The position numbers and the translations under genes are program-made. From the sequence record SRR20825019_1320: DNA of 49,468 nt; one strand, 5' to 3'. The notes under the pieces are model-generated. The model was not told the DNA's origin, did no database searches, and worked only from the letters and a program-made list of their open reading frames with translations. Shown one piece after another: positions 26 to 25,020 of this stretch. Every line of letters begins with the position of its first letter. Positions within the stretch are counted from its first letter, which is position 1.

Positions 26-622
26 ATGGATATAGGTTATGAAAAAGAGCAGTTTACCTGCCTGAGCATCAAAATTTCGATTGCCCTAAAGTATCGAAGG
101 TTTTGCAGGAGACATGGACATTCCCAATCCCTGACCCTGTTGGCCATGGTGGAGTTTTTTGAACATAACGGGATCTCCCCGGACGAACGGATGCACGAGA
201 CCATCGCCAGCCTCAAATACCTGATCAAACGCCGCTTCAATGCCATGGTCGCCATCATGCGGAGCATCGAAAAGGAACAGACCCTGCCCACGGTCAGTAT
301 GATCCAGGCGCTCTTTGAACAGGAACTGGAATCCAATGGGGAAGAACTGGACAATGATTTTGACTTTATCGAACAGCAACTGACGGAGACCAGGAAGCCT
401 TTGGAACCGGAATCCTTTGATGGGGAGATTACCGTTCCGAGGATAAGATTCGAACGTTTGGAGGAGCAATTGGAGGAGTTGAAAAGTGACTTTGGGCATG
501 TCCTTGACCATGTAGTGGAGAGCAGAAACCCATTGGTTAAGAAACATTTGATCATGGATCTGAATCCTGGAGCAATTGAAAAATATAAAAGAAAGCTTAA
601 AAATTTAAAGGATATGGTTTAA
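26..622 (+). CDS. BfmA/BtgA-family mobilization accessory protein
   Basis: N-terminal pattern (SQSLTLLAMVEFFEHNGISP...IKRRFNAMVAIMRSIEKEQTLPT) resembles Bacteroidota BfmA/BtgA proteins; lies inside the element. Confidence 0.7.
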   Translation: MDIGYEKEQFTCLSIKISIALKYRRFCRRHGHSQSLTLLAMVEFFEHNGISPDERMHETIASLKYLIKRRFNAMVAIMRSIEKEQTLPTVSMIQALFEQELESNGEELDNDFDFIEQQLTETRKPLEPESFDGEITVPRIRFERLEEQLEELKSDFGHVLDHVVESRNPLVKKHLIMDLNPGAIEKYKRKLKNLKDMV

Positions 623-1498
623 GCCCACTCCCTTTTCAATTTTCATCAAATGATCATATCGGAGTTTTTCATTCAGGTCCTTGAACCCGCAAAATAGTTC
701 CCTTCCATCCTTGAATTTGCTATGCTGTTCCAATAAAGACTTGGTCATGCTATCCCCGGCGCCATCGTTGTCCAAGAGTAGCTTACAGTGAGTGTAACCA
801 TCAATGAATCCTTTCAGGTTGTTGGCGAAAGCAAGGGAGTTTAAGACCACTATGTCCGAATCCACCAACCATGCCGGGCCAATGGCCTTTAGTGATAGAA
901 AATCGAACATGCCCTCGACAACTGCTAAATACTTTCTATCCTCTTTAATATAGGTTATGGCCTTGGGTGAGGAACATAGTTTTTGAAAGCTGTTTCGGAG
1001 CTCCCATCCTCCCTTTCTATTTTCGAGGCCGATGGCAAAAAAATCCCGGTTGCCCATTTTGAAATGAACCTCCTTTACATAGGAACGTGCAATGGCCATT
1101 GGGATACACCTATGCTCTAGATATTGCACTAGTGCTGGTTGGTATATATCCATTACTTCCCCAACGATGATGCCTTTCTTGGTCTTGGCCGTTGCTTTTA
1201 TCGGGGCAGGGGACATGGAATATGAACCTTCATCCAATAGTTCCAATACCTCGGACACGGAAGAACCGGTAATTCTCGTCATCAGGTCAATTAGGTTTCC
1301 ACCAACGCCCTCCCCATGGTCATACCACCTGTTCAGGACTTTGGAGACCTTGAAAGAAGCTTTGGTCTCCTTTCGAAAAGGACTGAGGAACCATGCTTCC
1401 CTTTTGGATTCCCTAGTCGGGAAATGTCCCATATCCGCCAATGCAGATAAGATGCAAAGATTGCGTGCCGTTTCACAGTTCATTCTTTTTTCTTTCAT
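605..1498 (-). CDS. DnaG-like Toprim primase with degenerate CHC2-type N-terminal domain
   Basis: SPFR..E..ASF.V...WYDHG.G.GG N-terminal domain; Toprim motifs VVEGMFDFLS and LDNDGAG; start placed at MKEKR (1498) rather than 1579. Confidence 0.85.
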   Translation of the reverse strand: MKEKRMNCETARNLCILSALADMGHFPTRESKREAWFLSPFRKETKASFKVSKVLNRWYDHGEGVGGNLIDLMTRITGSSVSEVLELLDEGSYSMSPAPIKATAKTKKGIIVGEVMDIYQPALVQYLEHRCIPMAIARSYVKEVHFKMGNRDFFAIGLENRKGGWELRNSFQKLCSSPKAITYIKEDRKYLAVVEGMFDFLSLKAIGPAWLVDSDIVVLNSLAFANNLKGFIDGYTHCKLLLDNDGAGDSMTKSLLEQHSKFKDGRELFCGFKDLNEKLRYDHLMKIEKGVGLNHIL

Positions 1499-1517
1499 GG
1501 CTTTGTTGTTGGGTGAT

Positions 1518-1728
1518 TTTTGATGATTTGATGACAAATCTTTGGGGAGTCCTATTAACACTGATGGTTCCCAAGTCATCGTTTTATCATCGGTTCATCG
1601 TTTTATTTTTTTTCTTCATGGGCCCTGTCATCATTTTTTATTTTGATGACAAAATGATGATAAAGTGATGATAGCCTAAACCATTATAAACATTGGGATT
1701 TTCTCAATCTGTCATCAAATCATCAAAA
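1518..1728. repeat. Iteron-like TGATGA/TCATC repeat cluster bounded by a perfect 19-bp inverted repeat (putative element origin)
   Basis: TTTTGATGATTTGATGACA at 1518-1536 and its exact reverse complement at 1710-1728; TGATGA at 1644, 1655 and 1666 (11-bp period); TCATCG at 1576, 1587 and 1595. Confidence 0.75.
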
Positions 1729-2909
1729 TTTTGGACCAAAAATTCCTTTTTAATGGTAAAGTACCTCCCTTTGGCATCTTCGGCATTGATCTCACCGTTG
1801 TTCCAGATGGTTATTTTTTGGTACTTGTTGGAGTTCGGCTGGTTGTCCAGTTTCCAATCTTTCTTCAACAGCCTCCTCAGTTGGGTCAGATCGGTCTTGA
1901 CCCTTGTCCGATTGAGCAGGTGTAGGGCATCGATGGGACAGAGGTCTACTGAGTCCACATCAAATTTTTCCATGGCACTGACCAAGAGGCTGGCCAGTTC
2001 CTTTTCTACACGATTACGGTTGTTGTACACCAGTTTCTTTAATGCTGGGGTATATACTTCCTTTGGGGAAAACCACATCCGTGATCGTTGCAGGGAATGG
2101 AGCTTTCTTTTTGTCAAGTGATGTAAAAAGGTAGGGATTTCTTTTGTTAATTGTTCCAAATACTCCGTATCTTCTTTTTTTAATGGTGGTATTTTTCGTA
2201 CCCAGAACCTGGTCTCATGGGCATCGATCTTGATAAAGTTATCCTCGTTATTGCTACAAAGGATGAACTTGCCAAAAAATTCCACTTCCCTTTTGTCCTT
2301 GCCCTTGGCCTCCAATTTGTTTCGGTTGGTGGTACTCAGGTACTTGATGCGCTCGGTGAGTTCCTCTTTGTTGAACAACACCTCGTCAATACAAATCAAT
2401 AGTTTGTTGGCCCAATCCGAGTTGAACTGACTTCCGAAACTGTCATTGGTCAGATAGGTCAGGTTATTCCCGAAAATTTCCTTGAGCCATTTGAGAAAGG
2501 TACTTTTCCCAGTGTTCCTTTCCTTGGAAACCAGACACAGAATTGGAAGTATCTGGACAGGTTTTTGGTACAATAACTGCAGATAGTCCAGTCCCAATTT
2601 CAATTGATGTCCAAAAATATGTTTCAAAAAGGACAGGGTATGTGGAAAGTCCCCGGCTTGGAGCTCGTGCTCCAATGGTGAGTAGGTATTGTAAAACCCA
2701 TGGTGTTCTTTTTTGAAATCAACATGGCTGGGAATACAGGCGAACCCATCGTATTTTGGGACATTGCTTAAATAATCCTTTCCGTGGTCCTGTTTGATGA
2801 TGTGTTCGTTCCATGGTACCAGTAGCTCATTGAAATGTCCCGATATGGTGGGTATTCTGACCAACTTGTAAAAAGTGGTCCCAACCCTGATGTAGGGAAT
2901 ATTTTTCAT
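1704..2909 (-). CDS. Primase-associated P-loop helicase (DUF5906/SF3-like primase-helicase family)
   Basis: Walker A KERNTGKST, Walker B LICIDE, motif C ILCSNN; N-terminus MKNIPYIRVGTTFYK typical of Bacteroidota mobile elements. Confidence 0.8.
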   Translation of the reverse strand: MKNIPYIRVGTTFYKLVRIPTISGHFNELLVPWNEHIIKQDHGKDYLSNVPKYDGFACIPSHVDFKKEHHGFYNTYSPLEHELQAGDFPHTLSFLKHIFGHQLKLGLDYLQLLYQKPVQILPILCLVSKERNTGKSTFLKWLKEIFGNNLTYLTNDSFGSQFNSDWANKLLICIDEVLFNKEELTERIKYLSTTNRNKLEAKGKDKREVEFFGKFILCSNNEDNFIKIDAHETRFWVRKIPPLKKEDTEYLEQLTKEIPTFLHHLTKRKLHSLQRSRMWFSPKEVYTPALKKLVYNNRNRVEKELASLLVSAMEKFDVDSVDLCPIDALHLLNRTRVKTDLTQLRRLLKKDWKLDNQPNSNKYQKITIWNNGEINAEDAKGRYFTIKKEFLVQNFDDLMTD

Positions 2910-2967
2910 ATGTAATGATTTTTTAGCTATTTGGAGAAATAGCATGAGGTGTTGATATGAAACATGG

Positions 2968-3249
2968 CTATCCCTTTCTCAGGATATATTCAACCGCTTG
3001 GTCGTTGGTTTCACAGGTGGATTTTCTATCATTTCTCAACAGCCATTTGTTGAGACGATCGATGTCAAAATAAATCAACTTTCCGTTGGGCTTGCTATGG
3101 GGTATTTTACCTGCGGCGGTCAGTTTGTAGAGATAACTTCTGGATATCCCTGTGTAGTCACAGGCCTCGTCAAAAGTGAGTACCTTTTTTGATCCCAACA
3201 AAAGACGTTCGATGTTGTTGAGTTTCTCGTTTAATTCAATATTGTTCAT
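2968..3249 (-). CDS. Excisionase / MerR-like helix-turn-helix DNA-binding protein
   Basis: KKVLTFDEACDYTGISRSYLYKLT...IPHSKPNGKLIYF is the HTH_17 excisionase pattern; directly downstream of the integrase. Confidence 0.9.
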   Translation of the reverse strand: MNNIELNEKLNNIERLLLGSKKVLTFDEACDYTGISRSYLYKLTAAGKIPHSKPNGKLIYFDIDRLNKWLLRNDRKSTCETNDQAVEYILRKG

Positions 3250-3561
3250 TTTTTCGGATTTAAAAATTCAAAATGAACAAAGCGCTTTGTTTCCTATGGT
3301 AGAATTCTGTAGATAAAGGTAGGGAGAAAAGGCAGTTTAAAATATGTGGGCATTGGTGAAAATATTCACAAAATACAGATATACAGTAAGTTGTATTGTT
3401 TTGGTGTCGTTTGAATATAAATGACCTCAATGTCCAACAAAAATAATCAGGGGTTGGGCTGAAAAGTATGGGTTATCAACAAGGTAATTATAGAATCACA
3501 TATATTTTTTGGGCATAAGGGATTGGTTCAAGGACATAAGGACCAAATTCGGGAATTAAAT

Positions 3562-4725
3562 TCAGGACAATCCCATGGTTTCCAGATTCAACTTGGGAAG
3601 CATCTCCGCTGCTTGCTTCATCTTTTCATCAATGATCTTGGCATAGATTTGGGTGGTTCTGATTTCCCTGTGGCCCAATCGCTTGGATACCGTGTATATG
3701 TCCGCACCGTTTTCCAATAGTAGGACAGCATTGGTATGTCTTGCGGAGTGGAAAGTAATATGTTTGGTGATTCCCGCTTGCATGCACCATTTTAATAACT
3801 GAATGTTCATATGGGCACTGTAGCAGAGCCCAGTGAACACCCTGTCTTCGGGTTTCCGTCGTTCACCCAATAAATCTCTTGCCTGTTTCGATATATATAG
3901 GTATTCCACTCCATCGGTCTTTTTTTGTTTGAACACAATACGGTACATAGGTCTTCCCGATTGATCGGTCCCTTCATCACGTACTTCTTCCCATTTGAGT
4001 TTGTTAATATCCGACCATCTGACTCCGGTAAGGGCTGAAAAGAGGAAGGCGCGTTTGAGCTTTGGGAATCTGCATTCTGTTCTTGCCAGGTTCTGAAGCT
4101 CTTGGGAAGTGAGGTATTCCCTGGTAGATTCGGCCATGGTAAATCCTTTGACCTTTTTTACCAAATTCTCTTTTAGGAATCCCTCATCGAATGCTGCCCT
4201 GAGACAAGCCTTGAACTTATTGAAATAGGTATGCTTGGTATTCTGGGATAATTTTTTCTCACTTTTGGTGACCGCTACAGTGTCCAGGTACTTTCTAAAG
4301 CCTTTTATGAAATCCACATCGACATCATGGAATGTGATGTGTTCGGGACAGTACTTTTCCAAATGCTTTTGAGCGGCATCCCAGTTGTCATAATTGCCCT
4401 TGGTCTCATAGCGTTCCTCTTTTTTAAGTTCATAATAGGAAAGAAATGTTGTTTTACCCTTGAAGTTGTTCTGTATTTTGAATTTTCCTTGATAGACTTC
4501 AGCTTTTCGGATCGCCAGGATTTTCTTGGCCAATTCTAGTTGTTCCTTATTGGTCCTTTTATCTTGAGCTGTTTGGGGGTCATTTATTAAATAAAGATCT
4601 AGATATTCAAATTCTCGAAAATGTTTAATTTTATTCTTGGAGGTGCTTTTATGACCTTTATAATATTCAATATAAAGGCTCGTTTTTCCACTTTTGAGTT
4701 TTTTCTTTTTGAGGTGTATTTTCAT
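3562..4725 (-). CDS. Tyrosine recombinase / site-specific integrase (Bacteroidota type)
   Basis: Catalytic residues intact: R (TGVRWSD), K (QKKT), HxxR (HSARHT), H (LGH), Y (TQIYA); N-terminal arm-binding segment KKKLKSGKTSLYIEYY; ATG at 4725. Confidence 0.95.
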   Translation of the reverse strand: MKIHLKKKKLKSGKTSLYIEYYKGHKSTSKNKIKHFREFEYLDLYLINDPQTAQDKRTNKEQLELAKKILAIRKAEVYQGKFKIQNNFKGKTTFLSYYELKKEERYETKGNYDNWDAAQKHLEKYCPEHITFHDVDVDFIKGFRKYLDTVAVTKSEKKLSQNTKHTYFNKFKACLRAAFDEGFLKENLVKKVKGFTMAESTREYLTSQELQNLARTECRFPKLKRAFLFSALTGVRWSDINKLKWEEVRDEGTDQSGRPMYRIVFKQKKTDGVEYLYISKQARDLLGERRKPEDRVFTGLCYSAHMNIQLLKWCMQAGITKHITFHSARHTNAVLLLENGADIYTVSKRLGHREIRTTQIYAKIIDEKMKQAAEMLPKLNLETMGLS

Positions 4726-4748
4726 TTGAGGTGTAAATGAGGTGTAAA
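4710..4748. repeat. Direct repeats TGAGGTGTA(AA), putative integrase arm-type sites
   Basis: TGAGGTGTAAA in tandem at 4727-4737 and 4738-4748; third TGAGGTGTA at 4710-4718. Confidence 0.65.
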
Positions 4749-4866
4749 AATTACTTAAAAAAGGGGTAAGTAAGGAAGATGTTGGCAAAAAAGTTATAAT
4801 ATAAAGTGTTGATAACTAATAATATAGCATCAAATCGAATCAAATTAAATCAAAAAAAATTGGCGC

Positions 4867-4884
4867 TTATTTGCCGATACAGAA
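4867..4884 (-). other. Putative att core: last 18 bp of mnmE (TTCTGTATCGGCAAATAA)
   Basis: Integrase starts 142 bp downstream of the mnmE stop; the trmE 3' end is an established integration hotspot; the second copy would lie outside the window. Confidence 0.6.
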
Positions 4885-6237
4885 ATTGGAAAAAATGTTG
4901 CCCAAAAGGTCATCAGTGGTAACGCTTCCCGTAATTTCCCCTAAGTGATAGAGTGCCTGTCGAATATCGATGGCCATCAAATCACTGGAAAGCTCCATGT
5001 CCAAACCTTCTTTTACTTTTTGGATTTCTTCCAAAGCTTTCAATAGCGCATCGTAGTGTCGACTATTTGTAATGATGGTGGTATCGCCGCTCAATGCCCC
5101 TGAATCCACCAAAGAAAGAAGCTTGCTTTCAAGTTCGGGAATCCCTTCTTTAAATTTTGCTGAAAGGAATAGTACATTGGGTATTTCGGATGTTATTTTT
5201 TCTTTCTGCCCAAGGCTCAGCAAATCCATTTTATTGCAGATTGGCAACAATTGTTTGTTAGGGTAGCGTTTTTGAATCAGGTCGAGTTCTGCTTTGTCAA
5301 ATTCCATCCCGTCAAAAAGGTAAATGATGAGACGGGCCTTTTCAATTTTGTCGAAGGTGCGTTCAATCCCAATTTTTTCAACAATATCAACAGTTTCCCT
5401 GATTCCTGCGGTATCGATAAACCTGAAATTGATGCCTTTGATGCTGATATGGTCTTCGACGGTATCACGAGTGGTACCTGCAATCTCGCTTACTATGGCT
5501 CTTTCCTCGTTGAGCAGAACATTGAGCAGGGTCGATTTTCCCACATTCGGTTGGCCCACAATGGCCACGGGTATTCCGTTTTTGATGACGTTGCCAAGTG
5601 CGAAGGAATCAATCAACTTTTTAAGTACCGAACTGATGCGATTCAACAACTCGTTGAACTGGGTTCTATCGGCAAATTCCACATCTTCTTGGGAGAAGTC
5701 AAGTTCCAGTTCAATCAATGATGCAAAATTCAACAACTCTTGTCGCAATTCCTGAATTTCGTTGCTGAATCCACCGCGCATCTGTTGCATCGCAATGTCG
5801 TGGGCAGCTTCGCTATCACTGGCAATAAGGTCGGCCACAGCTTCGGCCTGGCTTAAATCCATTTTACCATTCAGGAAAGCCCTTAAGGTAAACTCCCCGG
5901 CCGATGCAGAACGACAACCATTCCTTAACAATAATTGAATAATTTGTTGTTGAATAAAAGGGGAGCCGTGACACGAAATCTCCACCACATTTTCACCTGT
6001 GTAGGAATGTGGCCCTTTAAAAATGGACACCAATGCCTCATCCAGAATTTTATCACCATCAACGATATTTCCCAAATGGATGGTGTGACTCTTTTGTTCC
6101 ACCAACTTTTTATTTTTTATAGACTTGAACAATGGGTCCATCAATGTAATGGCATCCGGTCCAGAGACCCTGATTACTGCAATCGCCCCTGTTCCTGAAG
6201 GCGTTGCCAAGGCTACAATGTTATCTGTATACGACAT
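4867..6237 (-). CDS. mnmE: tRNA modification GTPase MnmE
   Basis: IVALATPSGTGAIAVIRVSG, GQPNVGKS, GTTRD, DTAG, NKMD and C-terminal FCIGK. Confidence 0.98.
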   Translation of the reverse strand: MSYTDNIVALATPSGTGAIAVIRVSGPDAITLMDPLFKSIKNKKLVEQKSHTIHLGNIVDGDKILDEALVSIFKGPHSYTGENVVEISCHGSPFIQQQIIQLLLRNGCRSASAGEFTLRAFLNGKMDLSQAEAVADLIASDSEAAHDIAMQQMRGGFSNEIQELRQELLNFASLIELELDFSQEDVEFADRTQFNELLNRISSVLKKLIDSFALGNVIKNGIPVAIVGQPNVGKSTLLNVLLNEERAIVSEIAGTTRDTVEDHISIKGINFRFIDTAGIRETVDIVEKIGIERTFDKIEKARLIIYLFDGMEFDKAELDLIQKRYPNKQLLPICNKMDLLSLGQKEKITSEIPNVLFLSAKFKEGIPELESKLLSLVDSGALSGDTTIITNSRHYDALLKALEEIQKVKEGLDMELSSDLMAIDIRQALYHLGEITGSVTTDDLLGNIFSNFCIGK

Positions 6238-6242
6238 GGGCA

Positions 6243-6250
6243 CAAAAGTA
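6243..6250 (-). promoter_or_regulatory. Bacteroidota -7 promoter box (TACTTTTG) of mnmE
   Basis: Matches TAnnTTTG, only 5 nt upstream of the ATG. Confidence 0.6.
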
Positions 6251-17690: not shown

Positions 17691-17718
17691 AAGGACCTCT
17701 TTATCTTAGGAGGTCCTT
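17691..17718. terminator. Hairpin terminator between acs and the exonuclease gene
   Basis: AAGGACCTC...GAGGTCCTT stem spanning the exonuclease stop codon. Confidence 0.55.
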
Positions 17719-18351
17719 TATTTTTTGAGGTTTTAGTTTTTCAATGGTTCTCAAAAAAGCTATAGCTGTAATAAAGGCGTCGCCTAAAGCTGTATGTCTA
17801 TCTTTTCTGGAGATACTGAATTTTTTGGCAAGGTCGTCCAAGGAGTATCTTTCCTTTTTTTGGACCACAGAAGAAATCAAAAGGGTTCTAATGTATAGGG
17901 ATTCAGTGTCCAATGTCTTGTTTTTGAGTTTGGGCAATCCGTTCCTTTTGAGCGCGGCATTGATCATATTGACATCGAACATCACATGGTGTCCCACCAG
18001 TATATAACTTTTGACATATACCAAAAATTGCTTCAGGGCTTCAAGTTCGGAAATAGTGTTCTTCTTACTTTTCTTAAGGATTCCATGGATTTCAGCACTT
18101 TCGGAATCATAGTGTTCCTGTTGGATATAAACTTCAAAAGTGTCCTTGACCACAATATTGTTGTCCTTAAGCTTTAGGGCACCTATACAGAGCATTCGGT
18201 CCTTTGTGAAACTAAAACCGGTGGTCTCCGTATCCAACACTACAAAAATATTTTCATGGATATCCTCTGGAAGCTTTTCTTTGAAATGCTCCTCATAGGC
18301 CCGCCAGAAATCGGGCAGTTCCAGCGGTTTCTTTTTGGAGAACGGCCACAT
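17701..18351 (-). CDS. DEDDh 3'-5' exonuclease (DnaQ/PolC-like)
   Basis: VVLDTETTG, VGHHVMFD, RHTALGDA; start overlaps the stop of the DUF294 gene. Confidence 0.9.
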   Translation of the reverse strand: MWPFSKKKPLELPDFWRAYEEHFKEKLPEDIHENIFVVLDTETTGFSFTKDRMLCIGALKLKDNNIVVKDTFEVYIQQEHYDSESAEIHGILKKSKKNTISELEALKQFLVYVKSYILVGHHVMFDVNMINAALKRNGLPKLKNKTLDTESLYIRTLLISSVVQKKERYSLDDLAKKFSISRKDRHTALGDAFITAIAFLRTIEKLKPQKIKDLLR

Positions 18352-20270
18352 TAGCGTAAAAGGTTTTTTACTTGGAACCTCACCTCTATCAAGGATTGAA
18401 TTTCCTTGACAGTCTTGAAGGTTCTCTTCAGTTTGATTTTTTCTTCTTTGTTCAATTTATCCAAAGCAATATATCGGCCCGAATCGTTATGCAACAGCCC
18501 CTGTCTCGTTCTAAATTTCAACAATGCTTTACTGGCATAGGAGCAGGCGAGATAAAGCTCTTTATTATTGGGCTCCAATTCTGCGAGTTTTTCATAACGT
18601 TCGGCTGTATTGTTGATAGATTTGATGGAGTGGGATAAAATCAATACCCGTGCAGCATCTATAATGGGCATTAGGGCACGAAGTTTTAAATCGAAAAAAT
18701 CCTTGTGCTCACCATCTTGCTCTACAAGAAAATCCCTAAAAAAACCAGAAGGAGAAGGGTTTTGCAGTGCACCGCTTGCCAAATGGGTAAAAAATAGGGG
18801 ATATCCCTGTACACTGTCAAAAATACTTTGTGAGAGTTCATCGGCCAATGCCTTGTCACCAAAAGTAACATTGTAATCAAAAAATATGGATAATAAAAGT
18901 ATTTCATCTGGCCCAGGGTTATGTATCCAATGTCTTGTTACATCCTTCCATTCACTAAGGCTATGGCACCACGAAAGGTTGGAAGCCATCATATCCGCTG
19001 GACAATATTCAAAACCAATGGTATTTAGCATTTTGGAAATCCGTTCGCCCAATTTTAAGAAATAGGACCGGGTAACTTCTAAATTCTCCTTTGGTACATC
19101 TTCAAAAATAATGGCATTGTCTTGGTCAGTGTTCAATAATTGTTCGCCACGACCTTGGCTGCCCATGCTCAACCAAGTAAATTTTACAGGGGGTTCTTTT
19201 TCCATTTTCGACAATGCGATTTTTACCACCTGCTTCGTGGAGGCATCATTGAGTTCGGAAATAATTTTGGAAACTAGTCCCAACGGAATGTTCTGTTCCA
19301 AATAACCTTGAAGCAGATTCATGATTCCATGTCGAATGCTGCGTAGTCTTTTTGCTTTGGAAGCCCTTTTTATGGCGCGTAAAAGTACTGCGGGGTTGTT
19401 CCCGACAGCTACCATTATATCATGTTTGGATAAGATTCCTGCCACTTTTGAGTCCGTAGTCCCATCCTCTGTGAGCACTAAATGACTGATATCGCTCTTC
19501 ATCATGGCCATTTGCGATTGCGCCAAAGTAAGTCCTTTGGGGTAGGTGATAATGGGAGATGACATTATAGATTGGGCGGATGCAGTAATGGGATATAATC
19601 CTGTTGCCACTTTTTTCCGGATATCCTTGTCCGTTATGATACCCACGGGAAGGTCTTCCCGAACCACCAACATACAACCTACATTGTGCTTGGTCATTTT
19701 GTTGGCAATGGTCTTTACTTGTGTGCCCTCCTTGCAAGTGATGAGCTTGGTTGAATATTTAATGGGCTGCAAATCCAGCATTTTGTCGCTGGAATATTGA
19801 TTGGAATCGATGTTGTCCCCATAGAGCTTGCCACGATGTTTAATGGAATAGGGGTTTCCCGTATTGGAAGCAAAGCTTTCTATCAAAAAATTCCCGATAC
19901 GTTTGTTTTCGAGAGCCAGTGGCTTGAAATCTTTGATGGGAATGGCGTAGAGGATGGTTTCTTCATAGGCCTTCGCTTCCAATTTATAACTTTCATTGGC
20001 CAGCAAGGGGCGCAATCCGAACACATCACCTTCATCACAAATATCCAATATCTGGCTTGAACCTGATTTGGAAAGTGCCACGGCACCTTTGTTCACCACA
20101 TAAAAATTGTCGTGCGGACTTTCACCTTGGGAGAAAACCACCGTGTTGGTCTCTTTGTGGATTATGGTGACCTCAATGGACAACTGCTCCAGCTGTTTGG
20201 ATTCCATGGCATTGAAGGGGGGGTAGCTTTTTAGAAAATCGGCAATACGCTCGGATATGGTGTTTTTCAT
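18351..20270 (-). CDS. cNMP-binding + CBS pair + DUF294 nucleotidyltransferase protein
   Basis: N-terminal cNMP-like fold (YVVNKGAV..EGDVFG), CBS pair (GIITDKDIR; GILSKHDI), pol-beta NTase motif GSQGRGEQ....DQDNA, C-terminal DUF294_C helical region. Confidence 0.9.
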   Translation of the reverse strand: MKNTISERIADFLKSYPPFNAMESKQLEQLSIEVTIIHKETNTVVFSQGESPHDNFYVVNKGAVALSKSGSSQILDICDEGDVFGLRPLLANESYKLEAKAYEETILYAIPIKDFKPLALENKRIGNFLIESFASNTGNPYSIKHRGKLYGDNIDSNQYSSDKMLDLQPIKYSTKLITCKEGTQVKTIANKMTKHNVGCMLVVREDLPVGIITDKDIRKKVATGLYPITASAQSIMSSPIITYPKGLTLAQSQMAMMKSDISHLVLTEDGTTDSKVAGILSKHDIMVAVGNNPAVLLRAIKRASKAKRLRSIRHGIMNLLQGYLEQNIPLGLVSKIISELNDASTKQVVKIALSKMEKEPPVKFTWLSMGSQGRGEQLLNTDQDNAIIFEDVPKENLEVTRSYFLKLGERISKMLNTIGFEYCPADMMASNLSWCHSLSEWKDVTRHWIHNPGPDEILLLSIFFDYNVTFGDKALADELSQSIFDSVQGYPLFFTHLASGALQNPSPSGFFRDFLVEQDGEHKDFFDLKLRALMPIIDAARVLILSHSIKSINNTAERYEKLAELEPNNKELYLACSYASKALLKFRTRQGLLHNDSGRYIALDKLNKEEKIKLKRTFKTVKEIQSLIEVRFQVKNLLR

Positions 20271-20458
20271 ACTACTAATTTAAGCCTTGGTTTCATTTTC
20301 AAGAAATTATTGCTCCATAACCTTTTGATGGATAATTGTCTCATGTATACTGTATTCCTCAAAGTAATCACCAACTTTTTACCTTGCCCATAAACACCTA
20401 TCTTTGCCCATCGGAAAAACAAGAATCCAATTTTCTAATAATCTATTAATCATATACA

Positions 20459-21391
20459 ATGCAAGACGGAATCTACGCAAAGTTCAATACTTCCAAAGGT
20501 GAAATATTGGTGAAGCTTACGCATGATAAAACACCTGGAACGGTTGGCAACTTTGTTGCACTGGCAGAAGGGAATATGGAGAACAGTGCTAAGCCACAAG
20601 GAAAACCGTATTATGATGGACTAAAGTTCCACAGGGTAATTGCCGATTTTATGGTTCAGGGCGGATGTCCTTCCGGAACTGGAACCGGAGACCCAGGATA
20701 CAAGTTTGATGATGAATTCCATCCAGATTTGGTGCATGATGGACCTGGAGTACTATCCATGGCCAACGCAGGGCCCGGTACCAATGGGAGCCAATTTTTT
20801 ATCACTCATGTAGCCACCCCATGGTTGGACAATAAGCATACTGTGTTCGGTCGTGTTGAAGAAGGTCAGGATGTTGTGGATGCCATTTCTCAAGGAGATT
20901 CGATTGAAACCTTGGAAATTGTAAGGGTAGGTGAAGAGGCCCAAAAATGGAACGCTATTGAGGCTTTCCGTACATTTGAAGGTGCAAGGGAAAAGCGTAT
21001 CGCAGAGCAAAAGGCTGCCGCTGAGGCTGAAATGGAAAAGTTGGCCGCCGGTTTTGATAAGACCGATAGTGGGCTTCGTTATAAGATTATTCAAAAAGGT
21101 AGCGGTGCCAAAGCAGAAAAAGGTAAAACCGTATCCGTGCATTATGAAGGTGCTTTGACGAATGGTCAAGTATTCGATTCATCCTATAAAAGAAAGCAAC
21201 CCATAGATTTTTCATTGGGCATTGGACAAGTAATTCCCGGTTGGGATGAAGGTATCAGTTTGCTAAAAGTTGGTGACAAGGCCCGTTTTGTGATACCATC
21301 GCACTTAGCCTATGGAAGTACCGGAGCAGGCGGAGTTATTCCACCCAACGCAACATTGATTTTTGATGTAGAATTGATGAACGTGAAATAA
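20459..21391 (+). CDS. Peptidyl-prolyl isomerase, cyclophilin + FKBP fusion
   Basis: [31 protein letters not shown] (cyclophilin); VHYEG...FDSS...VIPGWDEG...[13 protein letters not shown] (FKBP). Confidence 0.95.
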
Positions 21392-21413
21392 GAAATTTCA
21401 CATCAAAACATAG

Positions 21414-21441
21414 AAAGCCTTCAGTAATGGAGGCTTTTTTT
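21414..21441. terminator. Intrinsic terminator after the PPIase gene (probably bidirectional)
   Basis: AAAGCCTTCA-GTAA-TGGAGGCTTTTTTT. Confidence 0.8.
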
Positions 21442-21523
21442 ATTTGGCCCGGTTTACGCTCAAAAACAATAAACAGGCGTTAAGTGCGAGTAGTGCAACA
21501 AGAATGCTTAAAAAAGTTGTCAT
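21440..21523 (-). CDS. Unannotated 27-aa single-helix microprotein MTTFLSILVALLALNACLLFLSVNRAK
   Basis: Translated by hand; ATG with A-rich upstream context; 14/27 identical, ungapped, to the neighbouring microprotein. Confidence 0.7.
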   Translation of the reverse strand: MTTFLSILVALLALNACLLFLSVNRAK

Positions 21524-21595
21524 GGTTGTAACGTGTTTATTAGGTAACAGTTCAACGGTAAAAAACCCTACCTATTGCCCTAATCGACTTTTTTG

Positions 21596-21682
21596 TTACT
21601 TTTTTGAACCATTGACACTCCATACCAATAGCAGGGCATTGACAATCAATAAAAACGAAAGTACTCCGAAAAAGGTATTCAT
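21596..21682 (-). CDS. Unannotated 28-aa single-helix microprotein MNTFFGVLSFLLIVNALLLVWSVNGSKK
   Basis: Translated by hand; paralogue of 21440-21523 sharing M.TF...L..LL..NA.LL..SVN..K. Confidence 0.7.
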   Translation of the reverse strand: MNTFFGVLSFLLIVNALLLVWSVNGSKK

Positions 21683-21775
21683 TTATTGTTAGGTTTATAT
21701 GGTTATGGGGAACAGTGTTTGTTTATTCCTTAGATAGGAAACTTTGGAATGGTTGCGTAGAATTTGAAAAAAAGC

Positions 21776-21805
21776 AAAAAAAAGCCTGGGCAAAAGCCCA
21801 GGCTT
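21776..21805 (-). terminator. Intrinsic terminator after the cold-shock gene
   Basis: AAGCCTGGGC-TTTT-GCCCAGGCTT followed by a U-run on the minus strand. Confidence 0.85.
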
Positions 21806-21830
21806 GTCTAGAAAAAAAGTTTATTATAAC

Positions 21831-22025
21831 CTAATCCGCAACTTGTACGTTAACGGCGTTCAATCCTTTTTTACCTTGTTGTAGTTCGAATTCTACAACG
21901 TCACCTTCTCTGATTTCATCGATTAAACCTGAAATGTGTACGAAGTGATCTGTGTTTGAACCATCTTCAGTGATAAATCCGTAACCTTTAGAATCATTGA
22001 AGAATTTTACTGTTCCTTTACTCAT
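21831..22025 (-). CDS. Cold-shock protein (CspA family)
   Basis: GTVKFFNDSKGYGFI (RNP1), HFVHISG (RNP2), KGLNAVNV. Confidence 0.96.
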   Translation of the reverse strand: MSKGTVKFFNDSKGYGFITEDGSNTDHFVHISGLIDEIREGDVVEFELQQGKKGLNAVNVQVAD

Positions 22026-22107
22026 AATATAAATTGAAAAAATTAAATTGGCTCCAAAGGTACGTTTAATTTATTGGCAATCAGTTTTTTTCTTCAAATA
22101 AAAAAAA

Positions 22108-22746
22108 TTAAGCTGTTGGATCAGGCGTCAAACGTAGGTATGGTTTTACTTCTTCCACCCCTTTTGTAAAAATATTTTTCGCTTCTTCTGTAGGTATGGC
22201 AGGGCTAACTACCACTTTTTCACCGTTTTTCCAGTTGGCTGGAGTAGCTACTTTATGGTTTGCTGTTAACTGCAATGAATCCACAACTCTGAGCAATTCG
22301 TAAAAATTACGTCCGGTAGAGGCGGGATAGGTGAGCGTAAGTTTGATTTTTTTATCTGGATCGATAATGAATACTGAACGAACGGTCAACGTATTGTCCG
22401 CGTTAGGGTGGATCATATCATAAAGATCGGACACCTTTCGCTCTACGTCTGCAACTATCGGAAAATTCACCTCAGTGTTTTGGGTTTCATTGATGTCCTT
22501 TATCCATTCCAAGTGTGAAGCGGCACCATCGACACTCAAAGCCATCATTTTTACATTTCTTTTGTCAAACTCATCCTTGAATTTGGCCGCGGTACCCAGT
22601 TCAGTTGTGCAAACGGGCGTGAAATCAGCAGGGTGGGAGAACAAAATTCCCCAGCTATCCCCAAGATATTCATAAAAATTCAATGTTCCTTCTGAAGTTA
22701 CCGCAGTAAAATCCGGAGCGGTATCTCCCAATCTTAAAGTTGCCAT
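22108..22746 (-). CDS. 1-Cys peroxiredoxin (Prx6 family)
   Basis: FSHPADFTPVCTTE, YPASTGRNF.E.LR, VATPANW. Confidence 0.95.
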   Translation of the reverse strand: MATLRLGDTAPDFTAVTSEGTLNFYEYLGDSWGILFSHPADFTPVCTTELGTAAKFKDEFDKRNVKMMALSVDGAASHLEWIKDINETQNTEVNFPIVADVERKVSDLYDMIHPNADNTLTVRSVFIIDPDKKIKLTLTYPASTGRNFYELLRVVDSLQLTANHKVATPANWKNGEKVVVSPAIPTEEAKNIFTKGVEEVKPYLRLTPDPTA

Positions 22747-22891
22747 ATATTTTAATTTTTAGGTTTATAAATTAGTACTCTACAAAATTACTAGATTATT
22801 TGGTTGTCTAGTTGTAAATCAGTTAAAAGTGTATTAAAATACGGCTTTTTGATGAAGTGTGTTATTGCCAAAAAGTTATTATTTTTAGTTT

Positions 22892-23434
22892 ATGGAAAAT
22901 GAAACCTTGGAACAACTGCGCTATCCGATAGGAAAATTTGAGATTCCTGATGCTATTACAAGTGATGATCTCGAAAAATGGATCACTGATTTGGAAACAC
23001 TCCCTCAAAGATTGAGCGATTTGGTTGCCCCGCTTTCGGAGCAACAACTCGAAACTCCTTATCGTCCCGGAGGTTGGACGGTACGGCAGTTGGTCCATCA
23101 TATTTCTGATAGTCACCATAACAGCTATATACGTTTTAAGTGGGCTTTGACAGAGGATACTCCGACCATAAAGGCCTACAATGAAAAGGCTTGGGCGGAG
23201 CTGTTCGATACAAGAACCGCTCCAATACTCATGTCGTTGTACCATTTGAGTGCCATACATGCCAAGTTGGTGTATTTGTTGAAGGGGCTTTCAGAAGAGG
23301 ATTTGCAACGGAGTTTTATCCATCCAGATGGAAACCAAAAAACCAATTTAAAGGAGAACATTGGGCGTTATGCATGGCACGGTAATCACCATTACTCGCA
23401 TATCTTAAATTTGGTTGAACGCAAAGGGTGGTAG
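22892..23434 (+). CDS. YfiT/BstA-like bacillithiol S-transferase (DinB superfamily)
   Basis: LRYPIG, TPYRPGGWTVRQLVHHISDSH, YAWHGNHH. Confidence 0.88.
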   Translation: MENETLEQLRYPIGKFEIPDAITSDDLEKWITDLETLPQRLSDLVAPLSEQQLETPYRPGGWTVRQLVHHISDSHHNSYIRFKWALTEDTPTIKAYNEKAWAELFDTRTAPILMSLYHLSAIHAKLVYLLKGLSEEDLQRSFIHPDGNQKTNLKENIGRYAWHGNHHYSHILNLVERKGW

Positions 23435-23435
23435 G

Positions 23436-23978
23436 CTAAAGTTCTTTGGTCAAAATATACATGGGCTTCTCTTCTGGTTTTACATGGGGAAGTGTTACTT
23501 CGCTCTCCCTTTTGATGATAAAGCCATTTTTTTGATAAAACTGTACCGGTTTGCCTTTTTGCATGGCATCCAGCCAAATGACTTTTTTGTTCAGTGCCCT
23601 GGCCGTTTCTTCAATAAACTGAATCAATTGTTTGCCAATGCCTTTGCCTGAATGCTCTTTCAAAAGATAGATTTTTTCGGCTTTTAATGCCTCGGTATCC
23701 GATATTTCATCAATGCCACAGTCTTTTAGCAATTTAAGGACGCCAACCGTTTCTTCTCCCAAGTTGACCAGAAAATTCAAAACATTGGGGTCTTGTAGTT
23801 CACGTTCTACAACATCAGACGTAAAACCATTTGAAATGTATGGTGTTGGGTCTTCATTTTCCCATAAATGGAGGTAATTCTCGCGATAGGATTTAATGCC
23901 AATGGTCAAGTAGGTTGTATGGTTGTCGTGGTTGACAGGAACTAATGTTACGGTATTGTCCAAAACATCACAGTTCAT
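23436..23978 (-). CDS. GNAT-family N-acetyltransferase
   Basis: KIYLLKEHSGKGIGKQL motif A; FYQKNGF. Confidence 0.88.
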   Translation of the reverse strand: MNCDVLDNTVTLVPVNHDNHTTYLTIGIKSYRENYLHLWENEDPTPYISNGFTSDVVERELQDPNVLNFLVNLGEETVGVLKLLKDCGIDEISDTEALKAEKIYLLKEHSGKGIGKQLIQFIEETARALNKKVIWLDAMQKGKPVQFYQKNGFIIKRESEVTLPHVKPEEKPMYILTKEL

Positions 23979-23984
23979 TTATAG

Positions 23985-24545
23985 TTAGGTGTTTTTCCAT
24001 TTGATATTACATCCCAAACTCGGTTTTTGGTCTTGCTCAACCTCTTTTCCTTCCAGAATAGCGTCCATTGCTTTTTTAAGATCGGATCCTGTTAGGGGAA
24101 CATCGTTTCCAGGTCTGGAGCCATCAAGTTGCCCCCTATAAACCAAGGTTAGTTGAGGATCAAAAAGATAAATATCCGGTGTACAAGCTGCATCGTAGGC
24201 TTTGGCGACCTCTTGGGTTTCATCATACAGATACGGAAACGTATACCCCTCTTCTTTTGCTTTTTGTTTCATAAGATCTGGGGAGTCCTGGGGGTAGTTT
24301 TCCACATCGTTACTCGATATAGCGACAAACGCAATACCTTTTTCTTGATACTTCTTGGCCAATTCAACAATCATTGGGTTTACGTGAAGTACAAAAGGGC
24401 AGTGGTTGCATATGAACATTACTACCGTACCCTTTTCACCTTTTGCACTGTTCAACGATATGGATGTGCCGGAAATGGTATCGAAAAGTTTAAAATCAGG
24501 TGCCTTGGTGCCCAAGGGAAGCATGTTGCTGGGTGTCCTAGCCAT
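23985..24545 (-). CDS. Thioredoxin/AhpC-TSA-like redoxin
   Basis: MFICNHCPFV, AYDAACTPD, YRGQLD.SRP, GCNIKW. Confidence 0.9.
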   Translation of the reverse strand: MARTPSNMLPLGTKAPDFKLFDTISGTSISLNSAKGEKGTVVMFICNHCPFVLHVNPMIVELAKKYQEKGIAFVAISSNDVENYPQDSPDLMKQKAKEEGYTFPYLYDETQEVAKAYDAACTPDIYLFDPQLTLVYRGQLDGSRPGNDVPLTGSDLKKAMDAILEGKEVEQDQKPSLGCNIKWKNT

Positions 24546-24585
24546 GGTTCTTAGTTTTTTGTTGTGGTAACGCTATGGTAAAAAT

Positions 24586-24617
24586 AAAAAAACGACCTGC
24601 AAAATACAGGTCGTTTT
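24586..24617 (-). terminator. Intrinsic terminator after the PUR-family gene
   Basis: AAAACGACCTG-N7-CAGGTCGTTTT with extended A-run on the plus strand. Confidence 0.75.
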
Positions 24618-24639
24618 AAATTATTGAAGGAATTGTTTT

Positions 24640-25020
24640 TTAGATATCGTCAAAACTCACATCGGTAAAATTGCTACCGGTGGCAGTTCCATTTTCACTG
24701 AAAGTTTCTTCTTCATCCTCCTTTTTAAAATCTTTTTGGTGGCGTTCGGAGATGACCTCGCTTCCTTTTTCATCAATGATGTAGTCCATCATCTCTTCCA
24801 TAATCTCACGGAAAGCGCTAAAATCCTCTTTGTACAAATAAATTTTATGCTTTTTGTAATGGAAAGAACCATCATCGTGAGTAAACTTTTTACTCTCTGT
24901 TATGGTAAGGTAATAGTCTCCGGCCTTGGTGCTTCTGACGTCGAAAAAGTAGGTTCTTCTTCCTGCTCTTAAGACTTTCGAATAAATCTCTTCCTGATCC
25001 ATTGTATCTTTCTGGCCCAT
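24640..25020 (-). CDS. PUR-family (DUF3276) ssDNA/RNA-binding protein
   Basis: SKVLRAGRRTYFFDV...YLTITESKK...KHKIYLYKEDF. Confidence 0.9.
   Translation of the reverse strand: MGQKDTMDQEEIYSKVLRAGRRTYFFDVRSTKAGDYYLTITESKKFTHDDGSFHYKKHKIYLYKEDFSAFREIMEEMMDYIIDEKGSEVISERHQKDFKKEDEEETFSENGTATGSNFTDVSFDDI

Follow-up and report, generated by a model that had tools for sequence, protein, structure and literature searches.

What, if anything, is encoded in the apparent gap between a peptidyl-prolyl isomerase (PPIase) gene and a cold-shock gene (csp) of sequence record SRR20825019_1320? On the minus strand of the window, by which we mean the whole analysed stretch of 49,468 nucleotides (nt), this gap holds two open reading frames (ORFs) of 28 and 27 amino acids (aa), which an earlier note had proposed to be paralogous membrane microproteins. 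They are called D, the distal copy, and P, the proximal copy. According to our analysis, D and P represent a new family of predicted bacterial small membrane proteins outside the curated families. The best overall explanation, to which we give a probability of about 0.6, is that they are single-helix membrane microproteins driven by stress promoters and acting by helix-helix packing. The genes in question are the following.

21596-21682, minus strand: D microprotein gene, 28 aa, with a short N-terminus, a single hydrophobic helix carrying Asn15, and a basic tail
21440-21523, minus strand: P microprotein gene, 27 aa, paralog of D
20459-21391, plus strand: PPIase gene, a fusion of cyclophilin and FKBP
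21831-22025, minus strand: csp cold-shock gene

Both ATG ORFs were found in the sequence with the positions and peptides that the earlier note had given, and BLASTP reproduced its gap-free alignment of D with P, with 14 identities in 27 positions. Because both peptides are rich in leucine, composition controls were run on this identity. None of 200,000 shuffles of the second peptide matched the 14 identities, and the next-best pair among 23,871 pairs of small ORFs (sORFs) of at least 27 aa in the window had 10. Hence, the likeness of D and P exceeds what chance would give.

Comparison was made with 80 Flavobacteriaceae loci with 8-kb flanks, anchored on the PPIase and amounting to about 1.2 Mb; the nearest relative (L001), an uncultured Allomuricauda, has a PPIase that is 96% identical. 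A profile started from pattern-selected seeds was iterated over all 7,687 ATG sORFs of 18-70 aa in the window and the 80 loci. It converged on 65 matches, which are the two window genes (E-values of 7e-15 for D and 1.5e-13 for P) and 63 further copies in 41 of the 80 loci. All 65 are minus-strand ORFs at 27-700 nt past the stop codon of the PPIase gene, and none was found elsewhere in these 1.2 Mb. Two copies are present in 23 sources, the window included, and one copy in 19; P-type copies occur in 22 loci besides the window, each preceded by the motif B described below. The recurrent gene order, with arrowheads giving direction, is PPIase> <P <D <csp <peroxiredoxin DinB-like> <GNAT, and in 38 of 42 sources csp lies at most 800 nt upstream. 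With a looser stop-to-stop search, one copy with a non-ATG start (L062 8993-9082, E = 2.6e-4) and one weak candidate (L063 7859-7948, E = 0.2) were added. In these two loci, which come from metagenome-assembled genomes, the stretches L062 8993-9246 and L063 7507-8014 apparently hold extra divergent tandem copies, one with a non-ATG start, and motif B starts there at the stop codon of the preceding copy.

Substitution patterns of these copies are those of coding sequence. Over codons 2-23 of 30 phylogenetically independent nearest-neighbour pairs, the ratio of nonsynonymous to synonymous rates (dN/dS) was 0.151 in the annotated frame; for the +1 and +2 frames it was 0.61 and 3.1, respectively. 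The differences at codon positions 1, 2 and 3 numbered 187, 64 and 304. The D peptide is the same in the window and in one further locus (L010) despite many synonymous DNA differences. The check proposed in the earlier note, a hidden Markov model search combined with dN/dS, thus returned intact homologous ORFs with coding-type substitution. In the 65 leaders, adenine makes up 68-69% at positions -13 and -12 (background 31%), and guanine is nearly absent from -20 to -1. According to Baez et al. (PMC6847099), adenines at -3, -6, -12 and -13 favour initiation in Flavobacterium johnsoniae, which makes no use of Shine-Dalgarno sequences. The leaders of D and P had been described as similarly A-rich; this held for an A-run at about -12 to -15, but otherwise the two leaders are unlike, that of D having a CGCAACC...TCT motif and a TTCCCC block and that of P having GTAGGGT-N15-TGTTA. 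An 82-aa ORF on the plus strand (21444-21692), which overlaps the microprotein genes, was rejected as a competing gene; it is broken in the nearest relative, an open stretch of at least 70 codons is kept there in just 3 of the 23 two-copy sources, and it has no Pfam match. We consider it very probable that D and P are real protein-coding genes that are translated.

The alignment of short forms comprises 63 unique peptides of 27-38 aa. M1, L11 and N15 are invariant in all of them, and F4, L19 and S22 are at least 90% conserved. Positions 4-21 have a mean hydropathy of 2.85, and the tail past position 22 carries a net charge of +1 to +4 in 58 of the 63 peptides. By the positive-inside rule, the predicted topology has the N-terminus outside and the basic C-terminus in the cytoplasm. 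Conservation follows the helical repeat: no shuffle out of 5,000 attained the conservation moment at 100 degrees, whether in the short forms, the long forms (described below) or the combined set, and no periodicity signal was seen in the same sets at 90, 120 or 160 degrees. The constrained face is formed by F4, I7/L8, L11, N15, L18/L19 and S22, and the remaining positions are hydrophobic yet variable. A single constrained face together with a free hydrophobic remainder suits a specific helix-helix interface, and not merely a greasy peptide. An asparagine in the middle of the membrane is a known driver of helix association.

The family extends to longer proteins. Searching 1.84 billion representative sequences with the profile gave 83 proteins at E of at most 0.001 (best E 7.7e-10). 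From these, 44 proteins of 51-63 aa with a K-K-A-V/I-like C-terminus were picked by eye as the long-form set. They have M1, L11, N15 and S22 invariant in the shared N-terminal helix, then a variable basic linker, and then a C-terminus in which Y55, K56 and A58 are at least 90% conserved; long paralogs of 56-61 aa (P0004, P0038 and P0105, for example) end in YKKA[V/I]. A single long-form query returned 34 matches and the long-form alignment returned 184. AlphaFold2 predicted for one long form a single helix at residues 2-25 with pLDDT of 93-95, followed by a low-confidence tail. The very C-terminal K-K-A-V/I of the long paralogs is like that of RRKKAI, the C-terminal ClpX degron of MuA (PMC8138137 Table 1); the likeness is a resemblance only, and it concerns the long paralogs, not the two peptides of the window. 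It is possible that this end serves the long paralogs as a proteolysis signal, which the short forms would not have.

Every named record of the family is a "hypothetical protein". The named records come from Muricauda/Allomuricauda/Flagellimonas, Croceitalea, Croceivirga, Sediminicola, Cellulophaga, Eudoraea and Maribacter, and the clade with the family consists of marine Flavobacteriaceae including Muricauda/Allomuricauda/Flagellimonas, Croceitalea, Sediminicola, Arenibacter, Maribacter, Zobellia, Muriicola and Eudoraea. Two named long forms belong to the assemblies of two of our loci (L006 and L010), and hence such genomes hold three paralogs, namely long, D and P. A search that covered proteins of 14-70 aa in a set of 5.8 billion gave 59 matches, none of them shorter than 29 aa, in agreement with genes for 27-28 aa being missed by gene callers. 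No Pfam family matched D or P at E of at most 1, and the long forms gave just sub-threshold noise there; the family had nothing near the NCBIfam cut-offs, and Rfam had nothing at gathering score in 21000-22300. Among PDB sequences, the short profile had no match and the long profile had five weak ones (E 0.8-2.7). In the ESM Atlas, a 30-aa member had no usable match, and a 59-aa member matched only unnamed 59-aa clusters of Bacteroidota. Keyword searches of the literature on small proteins and type I toxins in this group returned no paper on the family, which is weak evidence, keywords being blind to sequence.

How these genes may be transcribed is suggested by the elements around them.

21732-21757, minus strand: motif A, CGCAACC-N16-TCT, a two-block element resembling extracytoplasmic function (ECF) promoters, about 75 nt upstream of the D start codon
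21707-21712, minus strand: TTCCCC block of the D leader, some 20-30 nt ahead of the ATG, conserved in the leader alignment (A3)
21545-21571, minus strand: motif B, GTAGGGT-N15-TGTTA, a two-block element upstream of P and candidate second promoter
21782-21805, minus strand: intrinsic terminator of csp with 10 pairs (7 of them G-C) and a T-run, the upstream boundary of the unit
21412-21439: hairpin shared with the PPIase gene, with 12 pairs on the plus strand, directly 3' of the P stop codon on the minus strand; probably a two-way terminator and the downstream boundary

The placement of the pair between two terminators was borne out, both hairpins being present. The hairpin at 21412-21439 was scored as the plus-strand terminator of the PPIase gene and looks weaker in the minus direction. 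Of 38 loci, 27 have a terminator-like hairpin between csp and the first copy, and a strict minus-strand terminator follows the last copy in 10 of 42; between D and P, no terminator-like hairpin was found in any of the 23 two-copy sources. Intact ORFs at the same slot in 41 of 80 loci, the frame-specific dN/dS, the hairpin after csp and the conservation of copy-specific promoter-like motifs together uphold the claim of an independent unit that encodes a small-protein family.

ECF sigma promoters have an AAC-containing -35 block and a short -10 block about 16 nt apart. Like these promoters, motif A has an invariant CAAC, a free spacer of 15-16 nt and an invariant TCT. Its consensus is ACGCAACC, followed by 15-16 nt of T-rich free sequence and then (A/C/T)(A/G)TCTA; one Zobellia locus (L027) and the Muriicola-like loci have CGTCT as their second block. 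The ECF-like element that the earlier note had pointed out is present and is kept upstream of D across genera; alone, however, it is insignificant in the window, where the strict motif has one match with 0.29 expected and with at least one match in 24 of 100 shuffles. Across the 80 loci the strict motif has 29 matches, of which 27 are directly upstream of a profile-matched copy and one is upstream of the weak L063 copy. The remaining match (L072 695-722) falls within an opposite-strand permease gene and was dismissed as chance. Motif A precedes D and most single copies; in relaxed form, with a spacer of 13-18 nt, it was found for 33 of the 42 D or single copies, at a distance of 62-77 nt to the ATG, and the CAAC and TCT blocks are invariant in all 34 aligned leaders. 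We read motif A as an ECF-type promoter, since its geometry and its AAC-containing first block agree with the features of that class. The ECF classification is the subject of PMC7826278, and keyword searches of the literature on ECF promoter motifs of Bacteroidetes and on EcfO gave nothing usable to name the sigma factor.

Downstream of motif A, a C-rich block ([TC]CCCC or TTCCC) is found in the last 60 nt of the leader in 15 of 23 D, 12 of 19 single and 5 of 23 P copies. The TTCCCC block of the window sits in an otherwise G-poor, unstructured leader, and RNAalifold found no conserved pair in motif-A leaders. About 8 nt upstream of motif A, many loci have a TTTGTT(T/C)AAC-like element (columns about 20-30 of A3; L002, L006, L050 and L042), which may serve as a second promoter or as an upstream promoter element.

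Motif B belongs to P. The window contains it once and none of 100 shuffles does, and 22 of its 23 matches in the loci are upstream of a P-type copy; the stray one is on the plus strand of the nearest relative (L001 4804-4829). All 23 P copies and 3 single copies have TAGGGT upstream, and none of the 23 D copies has it. The GTAGGGT and TGTT blocks are invariant in all 26, at 40-80 nt from the ATG, and RNAalifold found no conserved pair in motif-B leaders either. To our knowledge, motif B resembles no described promoter class. Our reading is that motif B would be a second promoter of alternative-sigma type, for P alone. Taken together, motifs A and B are probably promoters of alternative sigma factors.

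The housekeeping signal gives a different pattern. In PMC6847099, the housekeeping -7 box is TANNTTTG, refined to TAHHTTTG. Window positions 21392-21830 have no TAHHTTTG box on either strand, and the flanking genes have theirs at 22055-22062 (before csp) and at 20399-20406 (before the PPIase gene). The box precedes 24 of 36 adjacent csp genes, against 10 of 65 microprotein copies that have it within 120 nt, and on the antisense strand of the unit it was found in 2 of 42 sources.

According to our model, the microprotein unit would be transcribed separately from csp. D would be transcribed from motif A as an ECF-sigma-like promoter, and the transcript would probably run on through P, since there is no terminator between the copies; P would additionally have its own, different promoter-like element in motif B. 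When an envelope or other stress sigma factor is active, the peptides would be inserted in the inner membrane, the N-terminus lying outside and the basic tail facing the cytoplasm. The Asn15 face would then pack against another transmembrane helix, which may belong to other family members or to a conserved membrane protein. That the family may itself supply the partner is suggested by the face common to short and long forms and by their coexistence in the same genomes. The microproteins would be stress-induced modulators, and not enzymes or secreted peptides. This helix-packing mechanism is put forward tentatively, at slightly less than even odds.

MgrB, AcrZ, MgtS and SidA are examples of stress-induced small membrane regulators. 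Members of this class, which PMC12648545 reviews, resemble the microproteins in being single-pass and shorter than 50 aa, with a presumed stress promoter and helix-mediated binding. The class is a functional one and not a homologous family, and no homology of the microproteins to described families was detected. A bolder version of the helix-packing mechanism makes the short peptides helix-only antagonists of the 59-aa paralog, which, when induced, would pack into its assembly by way of the common Asn15 face or compete for its partner. Each short copy would be wired to a different promoter of alternative-sigma type, and the whole would form a two-input paralog-titration switch within the membrane. 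The short forms are indeed without the cytoplasmic tail and the MuA-like K-K-A-V/I end of the long form. Nevertheless, we think this version distinctly unlikely. A predicted complex of long (A4) and short (A1) forms, run without alignments or controls, gave scores of 0.02 and 0.03 where the mark is 0.34, which weighs neither for nor against such a pairing.

Several observations weigh against the stress-regulator explanation or parts of it. The start sites, translation and membrane location are all predictions from the DNA. A charged residue occurs inside positions 1-22 in 7 of the 63 short peptides. Of the 80 loci, 39 have no family member in the slot; downstream sequence is sufficient in at least 35 of these (three have under 700 nt and one more only about 1.2 kb), and hence the family is not universal; these 39 loci are from Flavobacterium, Aequorivita, Lutibacter, Polaribacter, Dokdonia and others, and they are also without csp and peroxiredoxin at the slot. 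A tree built on 26 columns from 107 helix segments was poorly resolved; the types D, P and long form clusters in it, none of them monophyletic, and it allows no claim on the order of duplication. With regard to the promoters, no sigma factor gene is present among the genes of the 49-kb window. In 6 of 42 D or single copies, motif A is immediately preceded by a perfect -7 box some 90 nt from the ATG, and there motif A could itself be transcribed and act as an operator or leader element. Moreover, a locus with motif B only (L068) seems to keep a decayed motif A and a remnant of D upstream, which weakens the argument that motif B works alone.

Other explanations have to be compared with the same data. 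That D and P are chance ORFs in an intergenic region, or part of a non-coding RNA, might be suggested by their very small size and by the lack of a match in Pfam, NCBIfam, Rfam, PDB or the Atlas. Against this stand intact ORFs of fixed length and register in 42 sources, the in-frame dN/dS of 0.15 with its dominance of third-position changes, the identity of D in the window and L010 across many synonymous changes, and the break of the overlapping antisense ORF in the closest relative; we regard this explanation as extremely improbable. The peptides might instead be type I toxin-like, depolarising the membrane, held by an antisense or trans RNA and released under stress. They have fewer than 70 aa, a transmembrane stretch and a polar or charged C-terminus, the features listed by Fozo et al. 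2010 (PMC2887945). As zorO/zorP, ibs and ldr of E. coli are described there, these toxins too have about 30 aa, one hydrophobic helix and a polar or basic C-terminus, and are duplicated in one intergenic region and overlooked by annotation, just as the tandem microprotein genes are missed by gene callers. An oligomeric pore, as in the pore models of PMC12648545, would likewise be compatible with polar residues on one face of the helix. However, the sequence shows no sign of an antisense RNA: the antisense -7 box is present in just 2 of 42 loci, the unit contains no plus-strand terminator, and Rfam gave no match above threshold, although a trans RNA or an unusual promoter may exist. Their leaders are short, G-poor and without conserved structure, whereas toxin mRNAs usually have structured leaders. 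Unlike that of zorO/zorP, the similarity of D and P ends at the coding region, the flanks of the copies being unrelated and motif A differing from motif B. In the tandem pair of enterohaemorrhagic E. coli, as PMC2887945 describes it, similarity extends beyond the coding region, whereas TAGGGT marks all 23 P leaders and none of the 23 D leaders. In addition, purifying selection is strong and the slot is kept in more than 10 genera, the conserved cytoplasmic tail of a longer paralog suggests a cellular role, and an NCBIfam scan found no sequence similarity to the E. coli toxins. One-face conservation, unstructured leaders, the rarity of the antisense box (2/42) and the conserved tail of the long paralog favour a helix-packing regulator or stress peptide, and a type I toxin seems unlikely.

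The same conserved face, with its invariant Asn and Ser, would also fit a fixed partner, and the microproteins could then be constitutive accessory subunits of a conserved membrane complex, similar to CydX or KdpF but encoded apart from the genes of the complex. Strong purifying selection agrees with such a role, and three paralogs per genome could serve isoforms of the complex. In 42 sources, however, no membrane-complex genes adjoin the copies, their neighbours being PPIase, csp, peroxiredoxin, DinB-like and GNAT genes. Also, the promoter-like motifs are not of the housekeeping type, the named records are confined to one clade, and the slot is empty in 39 of 80 loci, from genera that share core membrane complexes. 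This role is thus improbable in our view. A further question is whether motifs A and B are promoters at all, or whether the genes are served by read-through from csp or by a housekeeping promoter and the conserved blocks are operators or single-stranded leader elements. The TTTGTT(T/C)AAC element just upstream of motif A, which is a perfect TAHHTTTG in 6 copies, the TTCCCC block, which is already a conserved leader sequence, and a strict terminator after csp in only 27 of 38 loci all speak for this. On the other hand, both motifs consist of two invariant blocks at a fixed spacing of about 15-16 nt with a free spacer, which is the geometry of promoters, motif B lies at a variable distance (40-80 nt) from the ATG, and the housekeeping box is absent in 55 of 65 copies, leaving this explanation doubtful. 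A role as leader peptide or attenuator was excluded because no gene follows on the same strand, the next gene being the convergent PPIase gene after the shared hairpin.

Beyond the unit, the window has a redox-themed run at 22108-25020, which encodes 1-Cys peroxiredoxin, a DinB_2/MST-like protein, a GNAT acetyltransferase and proteins of the AhpC/TSA and DUF3276 types. In many loci, csp and the microproteins are accompanied by the peroxiredoxin-DinB-GNAT block, and this neighbourhood of thiol and peroxide enzymes together with csp hints at a stress context. Upstream of the PPIase gene, a 639-aa protein on the minus strand (18351-20270) has cNMP-binding, CBS and DUF294 nucleotidyltransferase domains; a DEDDh exonuclease (17701-18351) comes next, and the pair recurs in the nearest relative, L001. 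At the window start (605-4788), the minus strand encodes a Toprim-like protein at 605-1579, a protein with DUF5906 at 1704-2945 and, at 3562-4788, a tyrosine integrase that has an Arm DNA-binding domain; this region, beside mnmE (4867-6243), probably represents an integrated mobile element.

Annotation routinely overlooks small membrane proteins, and we know of almost no small membrane protein described in Bacteroidota. At 27-28 aa, the genes found here are below the usual 90-nt limit of gene calling. The family does not overturn current ideas, and it is a good small-protein candidate with usable features, namely an invariant intramembrane Asn on one conserved face and short and long paralogs in the same genomes. 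In addition, motifs A and B could serve as handles to find sigma factors and their regulons in marine Flavobacteriaceae.

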